Assembly (NCBI GenBank): GCA_951406725.2
Contig: OX597832.1
Location: forward strand, 48,050,001-48,114,000
Source: Octopus vulgaris
Lineage: Eukaryota
Length of the DNA stretch: 64,000 nucleotides
Direction: 5' to 3'
In this document: one piece after another, positions 213-27,519 of the stretch
Numbering within the stretch: the stretch's first letter is position 1
Layout of the letters: the number at the start of each line of letters is the position of its first letter
The notes under the pieces: model-generated
The model's input: the letters and a program-made list of their open reading frames with translations, nothing else
The model's database searches: none
Told to the model about the DNA's origin: nothing
Made by a program: the position numbers and the translations under genes

Positions 213-241
213 TCATCGCATCTGTTCCACTGAGAACATCT
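213..241 (-). CDS. Candidate short terminal (or poison) exon adding QMFSVEQMR* after exon 5a or 5b
   Basis: Strong acceptor (tttgac, long U tract, ttttacctgtag|AG) with about 80 nt free of AG upstream. Phase-1 join C+AG gives Q, then ATG TTC TCA GTG GAA CAG ATG CGA TGA. No homology support. Confidence 0.4.
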
Positions 242-584: not shown

Positions 585-699
585 GGGTGGAGGAAGGTTG
601 TGCTGCAGAGGCGGATGGTTTAGAAGTGTCACGATATGTGCCGTTAATGATAGCTAGCTCCATGAGTTGTCGTTTCTTTAAGTCATCCTCTCCTTCGGG
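585..699 (-). CDS. QKI: quaking/how exon 5b (QUA2, second tandem copy): PEGEDDLKKRQLMELAIINGTYRDTSKPSASAAQPSST
   Basis: Acceptor cctttttcag|CCC and donor ACCC|gtaagt; 115 nt, phase 0 to 1. Lies within ORF 490..738. Confidence 0.93.
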
Positions 700-761
700 C
701 TGAAAAAGGATCACAAGGAACACAGTTGTAAAGAACATGACTTAATAGAGTATGTACACAG

Positions 762-767
762 CATGCA
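762..767 (-). promoter_or_regulatory. UGCAUG Rbfox-type motif in the 85-nt intron between 5a and 5b
   Basis: Plus strand catgca equals minus strand TGCATG, starting 18 nt into the intron after the 5a donor. Confidence 0.45.
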
Positions 768-784
768 CTATTTAGCAAACTTAC

Positions 785-881
785 GATGGATGGATGAACC
801 AGTTTTGAAATCCCGGTAAGTTCCATTTAAGATAGCAAGCTCCATTAATTGCATTTTCTTGAGTTCATCCTCCCCCTCAGG
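785..881 (-). CDS. QKI: quaking/how exon 5a (QUA2, first tandem copy): [32 protein letters not shown]
   Basis: Read by hand; absent from the ORF track. Acceptor ttttctttcag|CCT and donor CATC|gtaagt; 97 nt, phase 0 to 1, no stop codons. QUA2 motif LKKxQLMELAIxNGTYRD. Confidence 0.9.
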
Positions 882-910: not shown

Positions 911-935
911 GATTAGAAGCGAAGAACAATTAGTA
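911..935 (-). promoter_or_regulatory. Bipartite QKI response element overlapping the predicted exon 5a branch point (UACUAAU-N13-UAAU)
   Basis: Minus strand reads TACTAAT tgttcttcgcttc TAATC, about 30-54 nt upstream of the 5a acceptor. Matches the QRE consensus NACUAAY-N1-20-UAAY. Confidence 0.6.
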
Positions 936-4091: not shown

Positions 4092-6529
4092 TATGTCTTT
4101 TTTCCCATGCTAGCATGAGTTGGACAGTTTGACAAGAACAGACAAGCCAGAGGGCACAAGCAGGTTCTATGACTGTTTTGGCACAGTTTCTGCAGCTGGA
4201 CGCCCTTCCTAATGCCAACCACTTAAGAGTGTAATAGTAATCTGAAATCAGTAACTGCGCACACACATACAGAAGAAGGAAGGAAGAGAAAGAAATCACT
4301 GCTTTTTAGAGAAAAAAAAGCGCAGGAGATATGAATAGCAGAACCACAGCAAGTTTGCGATACTATTGATAGGGATGAGTGGGGAGTTATCATGCAGTTT
4401 TCTCTTAAAAATTTACAAGTGTGATGGCAGAAGGGGAAGTGTTTAAGTGTGTAGGGAATGGGGGGTGAAAGGGGGTAAAAAAAACAAGATAAACATGCAA
4501 TAGAGAAACTATAGAGAAATTTAAGTAATATATATTCAAATATGAATTTATTTACAATTTTTTTTTTGTGTATTTTAAAAAAAAAGCATGCAGTTTGCTG
4601 CCAGGAATTTTTTTTTTTTTTTTTTTAATTTTAATAGAAACTTTACATATATTTATATATACTTTTTTTTTTTTTTGCAATTTCTTTCACTGAACGAACA
4701 AGTTGCTTGTTATACTAACATCTACATAAGACACACACACACACGTTTTGAGTTTAAACGACAACATGAAAGCGAGTGTGGAGGAGGGGGGGAAGGGGGA
4801 GACAAAAAAAAGGTGTTTTGCAAATATCACATTTCAGGAAAAGAAAAAAAAAACAAAAAAAACAAAACTGAAGCAAATGGAAAAAAAATATAGGAAAATA
4901 AAAATTACAAAAAATTACTATAAGTACCAAAGTGCAAATATTTAAAAAAAAAAATTTTTTTTTTTTTTTTTTTGGTTAAAAGCAACTGGCAACCTGTGAA
5001 ATTGGAATTGAAGAGCCACAGAAGACAACAGCTAAGAAACATTATCACCAATATATAATATATATATAAATATATAGCAAATAGAATGTGAAGGAAAAAT
5101 AAAAAAAAATAAAGTGGAAATAATAATATAAAAATATAAACAAAGAAAGCTTTACACCTATGTTTGGGAGATAGTCATGCAAGAACCTTCCAGAATATAT
5201 ATATATATAATACACACATCTAGAATATATATATATATATATATAATATACATATATATATATATATATATAATATACATATATATACATATGTATATGT
5301 ACATATGTGTGTGAGTATATATGTGTATGACACACAATATAGATTTACTTACATGTTTGGAATCAAGTTGACAGTCCTTCCTCGAAGCATGTAATAAAAA
5401 TTGTTGCAGGATTCTTAAACAATAGTTTTAGAAATCTAATACAAGCAAACAAATGACTAATCTCTATTATTTTTGCTTTGTAGGAAAAAGAAAATAATGT
5501 TTTGTTTTTTTTTTTGCATTTTTACCCATTTCCTTTAAAAAACAAAAATCTCTTAAGATGTGGCTCCAATCACCACAACATTCAACAGAACAGGAAGAAT
5601 AAAATAATGAAAATAAAAAATGTGGAAAACACCATTATTACACATACCAATTATTATTACTTTTCTATAGGTTTTGGCCGGTTTCAGTCATTGGACTGCA
5701 GCCATGCTGAGGACATTGCTTTCATCATGTATTTAGTCATATATATATATATATATAGAGAGAGAGATCTTTCCCAGCACTCCTAGTACTTATTTTACTG
5801 AATACCAGACTAGAATACAGGACATTAAGAAACGAATACACACATTATGAACTACTGTACCATTTCTATGGTGCCAAATCCCAGTCATGGAGTACAGGTT
5901 AGCTTGAAATTATAGAAGGCACTTGCGCAAAACGTCACACATTAGGACTGAATTGTGTAGTTGCAAAGTGGACCTGTTAATCACACAACCATCCTGTGTA
6001 CAGCTAAGAATTTCCACAAGTAAAACCCATTCACAGACGGAACAGATTTCTGCATGAAGGGTTTTCTATGGAATGACCTGTAGGTCATCAAGTCAGTTCT
6101 CAGTACATGACTGCATTTTGGCTATTGAAAAACTTCCTATGAAACATAGTTTGACTTACATTAGCAGGAGAGGATTGAGTCCTTGGGTTCATAAGGTCAG
6201 GGCTTAGTCAGGTTCCCATGGAGTATAAGTGACAGATTATAACACTCCTCCACCACTGAATGGGATGCAAGTATATAACAGGATTAACTGCCCAACTAAT
6301 GGTGGAACCTATTCACTGGACTGGAGCAACATGAAGTGAAGGTTTTTTTTTTGTTTTTTTGCTCAAGAACACAATGTAGTGCCCAATACAGAAATTCAAA
6401 CTGATCTTAAGAAGACTGGAGCATAAATGAAATACACAACTACACCAAACACCTGCACTCTCATGTTAAGTACTAAGATCAAATCTTCTAGAGGTCTTGG
6501 AGAAGACCTCTTGATACATAAACCCTAGG

Positions 6530-8427: not shown

Positions 8428-8571
8428 TGCTGGCACCAACAGTCGTTTCACTTCTTCGACAGCCTTCTGTAACTTGATTTCTGCTCTGTTACGTGTGTCT
8501 TCTACAGTGATGAGTACATGCAACTCTTCGTTCAAGTGTTCCCAGTTTGGCTTTCCCCGATTCAACTCCTC
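8428..8571 (-). CDS. QKI: quaking/how exon 4 (KH C-terminal half): [48 protein letters not shown]
   Basis: Acceptor atgcag|GAG and donor GCA|gtaagt; 144 nt, phase 0 to 0. [19 protein letters not shown] motif. Confidence 0.97.
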
Positions 8572-15805: not shown

Positions 15806-15922
15806 CTTTACCTTGTCCCGCATTGATCCTTTCCCTCGTACCATGATTTTACAGCCTGTGTATTGTTCGAGTTCTTTAGCAGTCATCCCTCGTGGGCCCA
15901 ATATTCGTCCGACAAAATTGAA
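15806..15922 (-). CDS. QKI: quaking/how exon 3 (KH core with GXXG loop): [39 protein letters not shown]
   Basis: Acceptor tgtttcag| and donor AAG|gtaagt; 117 nt, phase 0 to 0. Diagnostic STAR KH sequence [11 protein letters not shown]...[12 protein letters not shown]. Confidence 0.97.
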
Positions 15923-27385: not shown

Positions 27386-27519
27386 ATCAGGGTGTTCTTT
27401 GACAGGTACATAAAGTTTCTGTGATAATGTGACTGCTTGACCATCTGATGCAGGTAAGGGTAAAGATTCCCTGCTGTTTCCTTTGTGATGGAACAATGAG
27501 GATCGTATCCGTGCGATCT
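27386..27519 (-). CDS. QKI: quaking/how-family STAR protein, exon 2 (end of QUA1, linker, start of KH): (E)IARIRSSLFHHKGNSRESLPLPASDGQAVTLSQKLYVPVKEHPD
   Basis: Acceptor ttctgcag|AG and donor GAT|gtaagt; 134 nt, phase 1 to 0. The KLYVPVKEHPD motif is typical of QKI/HOW. Confidence 0.93.

Follow-up and report, generated by a model that had tools for sequence, protein, structure and literature searches.

Evidence for an ancient, mutually exclusive pair of QUA2 exons in the quaking gene of octopus

Known isoforms of Quaking vary outside the RNA-binding core of the protein. Quaking acts as a master splicing regulator, and Quaking and HOW set splicing and translation programs in muscle, glia, and the germ line (see also PMC9786888). 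In human QKI, exons 1-6 are found in all major isoforms and variation occurs mainly at the 3' end (PMC9786888), and the accessible part of that article makes no mention of a duplicated QUA2 exon. In GLD-1, the QUA2 residues Gly308, Thr309, Asp310, Lys313, Arg314, Leu317, Ala321, and Arg328 contact the RNA, and Leu320 touches the KH domain (PMC4081071). In QKI, Q193 has been mapped as a contact residue (PMC5626755). QUA2 also contacts QUA1 and sets the orientation of the dimer (PMC4735526). A survey of mutually exclusive exons in C. elegans, as far as its text was accessible, contains no occurrence of gld-1 (PMC4165533).

The locus compared here with these systems lies in a window of 64,000 nucleotides of Octopus vulgaris (contig OX597832.1, positions 48,050,001 to 48,114,000). 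It carries two QUA2 exons in tandem, named 5a and 5b (Table 1). The host gene is an ordinary Quaking/HOW orthologue in the Quaking subfamily of the STAR family. Octopus quaking-B records, including P0005 of O. vulgaris, match exon 4 at 100% identity, and exons 2-5 of P0005 map to the window at full identity. Exons 2-4 lie inside the window, where exon 1 was not found; the later exons extend up to about 10 kb before the window start, with the next constant exon ~4.6 kb beyond it. The QUA1 dimerization domain ahead of KH is annotated on P0005 (precomputed PF16544), and its helices span residues 13-26 and 34-53 in a structure model of the 5a isoform. Exons 3 and 4 encode an extended KH domain with a GPRG loop. 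The best fold matches of the 5a-isoform model are GLD-1 (4JVY) and QKI (4JVH), with E about 1e-21, and the ESM Atlas returned only QKI/STAR clusters. QKI and GLD-1 rank above SF1 as matches of both QUA2 exons, which keep the contact positions; the best solved match is human QKI (4JVH) for 5a and GLD-1 (2MJH) for 5b. On the strength of these conserved contacts, both proteins are predicted to bind ACUAAY-type RNA. Vertebrate QKI (4JVH, 2BL5) shares the STAR layout, the QUA2 helix, and the RNA-contact residues with the octopus protein and has Met10 and Leu18 as in 5a (numbered by exon position), and GLD-1/HOW (2MJH, 4JVY) share a basic residue at position 10 and Ile18 with 5b.

Table 1. Features of the quaking locus in the octopus window
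Feature	Position	Strand	Description
Exon 2	27386..27519	-	End of QUA1 and QUA1-KH linker
Exon 3	15806..15922	-	Part of the KH domain
Exon 4	8428..8571	-	Second half of the KH domain; phase-0 donor (at 8428) upstream of the pair
Optional linker exon	5353..5388	-	36 nt, KH-QUA2 linker; used in sister-species models
TACTAAT with TAAT half-site 13 bases on	912..935	-	Branch-point zone of 5a
QUA2 exon 5a	785..881	-	97 nt, phase 0 to 1; Met10, Leu18, short tail
Middle intron, 5a-5b	700..784	-	85 nt
TGCATG motif	762..767	-	Single copy in the middle intron, downstream of 5a and upstream of 5b
QUA2 exon 5b	585..699	-	115 nt, phase 0 to 1; Arg10, Ile18, Ser/Thr-rich tail
Short alternative terminal exon, coding part	213..241	-	Joined to 5b in model P0005

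The original prediction described two intact copies of the QUA2 exon, both with polypyrimidine-CAG acceptors, a common donor, and phase 0 to 1, and this description was confirmed to the base, including the lengths and the spacing. Each exon has a pyrimidine-rich TTTCAG acceptor and the same donor, in which an exonic C is followed by GTAAGTTTG. A recount also returned the predicted figures for the first 24 residues, of which 21 are the same in 5a and 5b; the codons of these shared residues differ synonymously in 12 cases and agree in 9. By codon position, identity is 20/24 at the first, 23/24 at the second, and 9/24 at the third, and 20 of the 72 bases differ in total. Chance similarity is excluded by the 23 identical second positions together with the two-exon layout in 9/9 loci from other animals. 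The 297-base stretch that holds both exons has a single match in the genome, and no third QUA2-like match was found in the 122 kb examined. The donor of exon 4 is in phase 0 and the next constant exon starts in phase 1, and 5a or 5b alone connects the two in frame. As had been predicted, inclusion of both exons leads promptly to a stop, which is the sixth codon after the join, and skipping of both shifts the frame relative to the phase-1 exon and then also runs into a stop.

Records of spliced products suggest that one exon is taken at a time. Among the 486 proteins examined, a single QUA2 copy is present in 359, two copies in 8, and no copy in 119, the last group including many fragments and not being checked one by one; P0318, which has no QUA2, was left out of the tabulation. 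The single copy was found in 43/43 assembly-derived proteins of spiralian type, and in all four spliced loci exon 4 is joined directly to a single 5b-type exon. These counts agree with the prediction that the exons are alternatives, and the further expectation that neither copy is idle was borne out in molluscs by separate single-copy isoforms of both types in 22 of 43 entries, which belong to four classes (chiton, octopuses, bivalves, and gastropods). Both types are seen solely through models with two copies in 5 of the 43 entries, and one type is seen in the other 16, for which 1-3 proteins per entry were available. In O. sinensis, 8 of 15 proteins contain 5a and 7 contain 5b, in O. bimaculoides the numbers are 6 and 4 of 10, and the whole 5a peptide and the whole 5b peptide of the octopus window recur unchanged in isoforms of both species. 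Among the models of O. vulgaris, only 5b is seen (P0005). The 120 residues upstream of QUA2 are identical in 22/22 pairs of 5a and 5b proteins, which indicates that they are isoforms of one gene. Of the sampled words, 0.42-0.81 were present in 14 runs marked or guessed to be RNA, and this was not counted as evidence; 5a or 5b alone covers 67 or 85 of the 311 sampled words. Strict exclusivity and tissue regulation of 5a and 5b are what we infer.

Other exons of the gene also vary. The 36-nt linker exon adds 12 residues to the KH-QUA2 linker, beside the pocket for the 5'-most base, and its effect on RNA binding may exceed that of the choice between 5a and 5b. Proteins of O. sinensis and O. bimaculoides, as well as the cephalopod-like P0138, include it, with either 5a or 5b; in the octopus window its acceptor reads CAT, not CAG, which could reflect a loss, an allelic variant, or an error in the consensus. 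In P0250 (O. bimaculoides) and P0252 (O. sinensis), exon 3 is joined in frame to 5a and exon 4 is skipped. These models lose half of the KH domain and keep QUA1, and a non-binding, dimer-forming protein is possible. With the short terminal exon after 5b, the P0005 protein stops right behind the STAR domain. In the stretch between about 3.4 and 4.6 kb past the window start, an optional 38-codon exon and three alternative acceptors of the next constant exon provide more isoforms after 5a/5b.

The pair is not specific to octopus, as both copies are intact in the isoforms of the sister Octopus species and in nine of nine other genomic loci. These loci were found by searching metagenome contigs with a pattern of the 5b core only, which gave 13 loci (4 spliced and 9 genomic). 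Though the pattern did not demand 5a, all nine genomic loci have a 5a-type exon just upstream of 5b. With octopus included, the 10 loci represent about seven independent lineages. In 10/10 loci 5a precedes 5b and double inclusion is predicted to give an early stop, and all 20 exons have a length of 3n+1, an AG acceptor, and a GTAAG donor. The middle intron measures 79-124 nt in nine loci and 301 nt in one. Within pairs, synonymous sites are largely saturated (0.43 identical codons) and the peptide is kept, and 5a cores are more variable than 5b cores, with 22.0 versus 23.4 of 24 residues the same between lineages. The original reading of an old duplication under purifying selection is supported. 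In Babylonia, two qki genes on different contigs each have the exon pair (P0223, P0226; P0075, P0149).

Mollusc classes split over 500 million years ago. In an exon tree built on the first 81 bases, one branch separates the 5a rows from the 5b rows (support 87/89) and appears in 90% of 200 bootstrap trees; the branch is not starred, and its 81 columns include the diagnostic codons. This tree is consistent with one duplication and is not proof of it. A protein tree without the QUA2 exon, which used 42 of 57 rows after 15 duplicates of 5b type were dropped, groups the molluscs with a support of 99. Transcript sets 2, 3, and 4, which contain both exon types, fall outside the mollusc group and join the nemertean Tubulanus in an open group (support 81); two of them are same-gene pairs, and the third consists of close relatives. 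The tail of Tubulanus is 5b-like, and no named annelid or brachiopod is among the matches. Elsewhere one QUA2 type was seen, by annotation and not by genome search, in amphioxus (15/15 listed proteins, of 17), Gordionus (3/3), and Styela (2/2). On the HOW side, unlike in octopus, the insect and arachnid records also contain one type in the 19/19 proteins examined, from five entries and again by annotation only. A search of 50%-representative proteins, in which 10 of the 150 matches were looked up, broadened the range of taxa. Together, the data are consistent with a single tandem duplication of the exon that preceded the divergence of the mollusc classes and probably also that of molluscs from other spiralians. 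As judged from sequence comparison, the age of the pair is far beyond what a single octopus sequence could reveal. It can be stated with high confidence that an exclusive and ancient exon pair is present in this Quaking/HOW orthologue.

The original prediction also held that choosing between the exons exchanges part of the surface that binds RNA, and in this wording the claim is unsupported. The exon does contain the RNA-binding helix, and the contact residues taken from the GLD-1 alignment and QKI Q193 correspond to exon positions 3, 4, 5, 8, 9, 11, 12, 15, 16, and 23, but these mapped RNA/KH contact positions are identical in 22/22 pairs. Across the pairs, differences occur at positions 1, 2, 6, 10, 13, 18, 22, and 24, and the exons diverge in the outer face of the helix and in the disordered tail. 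The octopus differences at positions 6, 10, and 18 point 136, 176, and 104 degrees away from the contact face, a placement that rests on a helical wheel. The outer QUA2 face is a candidate for packing on QUA1 or on a partner. The most constant difference between 5a and 5b is the tail after the helix: in 22/22 pairs and 10/10 loci, the 5a tail is mostly hydrophobic and the 5b tail has more Ser/Thr. In the model of the 5a isoform the tail is disordered, with pLDDT <50 from residue 201. The position-10 difference is not universal, since 5a and 5b both have Arg there in Biomphalaria and Pomacea. In heterobranch snails (P0204, P0215, P0195, P0229, and P0230), the 5a core is nearly that of 5b and has Arg10. 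Position 18 and the tail remain the main differences in these pairs, and this pattern suggests that selection acts on the tail.

The explanation proposed here, which is considered likely as a whole, is an ancient exclusive QUA2 pair with the same RNA motif and a different outer face and tail. Exon 4 would join 5a or 5b only. Transcripts with both or neither would meet early stops and be removed by nonsense-mediated decay (NMD), possibly with help from the short intron. The 5a and 5b proteins would bind the same ACUAAY-type motif, and the switch would change the outer helix face (positions 6, 10, and 18), a possible packing surface for QUA1 or a partner. It would also exchange a hydrophobic tail for a Ser/Thr-rich tail that could be phosphorylated or glycosylated. 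The swap of face and tail may thereby tune dimer geometry, partners, or signaling input. In many lineages, Quaking itself may set the choice through paired CUAAY motifs at the branch point of 5b. Same-motif binding and the outer-face/tail switch, taken jointly, are favored by a modest margin of belief.

Several other explanations bear on these steps. 5a and 5b might differ in RNA affinity or specificity, for example with Arg10 and the basic start of the 5b tail reaching the RNA, or with QUA2 re-angled on KH by the changes of the outer face. QUA2 has been described as the main modulator of affinity and specificity in the STAR family, two GLD-1 structures show it at angles 12 degrees apart (PMC4081071), and Arg10 is found in 5b in 22/22 pairs. 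However, every listed contact residue is the same in the two exons, and position 10 is the one that points most nearly opposite to the contact face. QKI has Met and GLD-1 has Lys at this position, yet they share a common consensus motif (PMC4735526). A change of affinity or specificity is regarded as unlikely. Somewhat less likely again is that the exons are not strictly exclusive and that double inclusion is regulated, either as a decay-linked off switch of qki or as an in-frame two-helix protein in oysters. Eight proteins contain both copies (P0160, P0172, P0227, P0237, P0180, P0209, P0179, and P0235), two of them are numbered isoforms in oysters, and the joining peptide begins alike in three oyster-lineage species. 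A middle intron of 79-301 nt is not clearly too short for splicing, and in octopus the frame would be preserved if 5a were joined to an AG that lies 7 or 10 bases into 5b. Against this, all eight models come from genome annotation; six run through the 5a donor into the intron and two enter 5b part-way, as in frame rescue by a gene predictor, and they are probably errors of this kind. None of the 43 assembly-derived proteins has two copies.

The age and the integrity of the pair can also be read differently. It is improbable, in our estimate, that the pair predates the protostome-deuterostome split as a self-regulated switch, with two QUA2 states toggled by Quaking through CUAAY motifs beside the exons, both kept by spiralians, and reduced by reciprocal loss to 5a in vertebrates and 5b (Arg10 and Ile18) in arthropods. 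The best matches of 5a to human QKI (Met10 and Leu18) and of 5b to GLD-1, and the CUAAY enrichment described below, speak for such an origin, whereas positions 10/18 are Arg/Leu in amphioxus, Lys/Ile in a tunicate, and Met/Leu in a nematomorph. This origin rests on two residues, convergence explains the pattern as easily, and the tails outside spiralians do not match. Pairs may also have arisen repeatedly or been kept alike by gene conversion, with one copy as a minor, nearly neutral spare. The greater variability of 5a cores, the partly 5b-like 5a of heterobranchs, and the moderate tree support would fit, but order, phase, and tail character are the same in 10/10 loci, both types are annotated across four mollusc classes, and the saturated synonymous sites stand beside a kept peptide; this reading is very improbable. 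An assembly artefact or a decayed copy is practically discounted. No evidence for either was found, and both are refuted by the 20 base differences in 72, by both peptides being unchanged in two Octopus species, and by the 9/9 loci. Two other sequencing runs contain all sampled words of the stretch, though one of them may be the source of the assembly.

How one exon is chosen over the other was approached through the introns. In C. elegans, 14/19 clusters of exclusive exons with non-3n lengths rely on NMD (PMC4165533), and exclusivity at the octopus locus would most simply be policed in the same way. Steric block operates when the donor lies under about 50 nt from the branch point (PMC7969005). 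Distances from the donor to candidate branch points range over 26-147 nt and straddle this limit, and no candidate was found in octopus or in locus L017; the octopus 85-nt intron contains no yTrAy branch-point match. Incompatibility of U2 and U12 sites was ruled out, as all donors are GTAAG and all acceptors are AG. A docking site or hairpin fold was sought in the nearby sequence downstream of 5b in seven loci, and none was shared or unusually stable (z -1.4 to +0.9); control of this kind was provisionally set aside. The TGCATG of the octopus middle intron is a motif that we take to be of RBFOX type, and conserved control of this type in the middle intron was rejected, since TGCATG occurs there in 1/10 loci. 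Farther downstream, two bivalve-like loci (L012:920-1097 and L021:565-745) share conserved intron blocks and a TGCATG about 125-150 nt past 5b. L017 has TGCATG at 129 downstream of 5b, and octopus has none within 300 nt.

The motifs of Quaking itself were also considered. In equal lengths of sequence, CTAAY occurs 12 times in middle introns versus 4 times upstream of 5a and 0 times downstream of 5b, in a test on 7 of the 10 loci in which near-copies were avoided. The shuffle mean is 2.0, and 0/2000 shuffles reach 12; a single CTAAY per intron can be a mere branch point. The middle introns of octopus and L017 contain no CTAAY (2/7 lineages). Paired ACTAAY motifs precede 5b in L009, L010, L011, and L019, and QKI is known to out-compete SF1 at paired ACUAAC branch points and to repress the exon (PMC13004596). 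The enrichment and the paired motifs suggest autoregulation in which more Quaking would give less 5b. That Quaking autoregulates the 5a/5b choice is a tentative reading, possible but not probable. In octopus, the core with half-site in the branch-point zone of 5a weakly suggests a bipartite Quaking response element, and this bipartite pattern is not enriched in the window (10 matches versus 23.5 expected).

The exon pair is apparently undescribed, although both isoforms are already present, unremarked, in automated annotation. The original prediction knew of no description, and a search of full-text literature, mainly open-access articles, likewise found none of a duplicated QUA2 exon. An either-or QUA2 exon kept at least since the mollusc classes split means that a large group of animals has been under selection for two forms of the core, and the usual models (fly, worm, and mouse) do not represent this group. 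With RNA contacts that do not change, the pair is a natural experiment on the outer QUA2 face and the tail. Quaking B has been edited in Euprymna berryi, where a deletion of ~1 kb in an intron results in brain defects; isoforms are not addressed in the accessible text (PMC13652810). Such editing makes the exon pair testable in a cephalopod. The eight database proteins that fuse both QUA2 exons are a trap for annotation.

Among known systems, U2AF1 exons 3/Ab are likewise duplicated alternative exons in a splicing factor, with control at the branch point, but they belong to another protein family and are described for vertebrates, without a link to STAR proteins in the accessible text (PMC5224494). 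The NMD-policed clusters of C. elegans share tandem homologous non-3n exons with the octopus locus (PMC4165533). RAI14 exon 11 resembles the four loci with paired ACTAAY before 5b, and in octopus the core and half-site lie before 5a instead (PMC13004596). In contrast to RAI14, the target here would be qki itself, the motif position varies between lineages, and binding is putative. In OGDH 4a/4b, a short intervening intron has also been kept over long times (PMC7969005); at the loci compared here the branch points are candidates, at the 26-147 nt given above, and a steric block would be putative. Pairs of homologous exclusive exons are well known, and the octopus pair works like U2AF1 3/Ab and OGDH 4a/4b.
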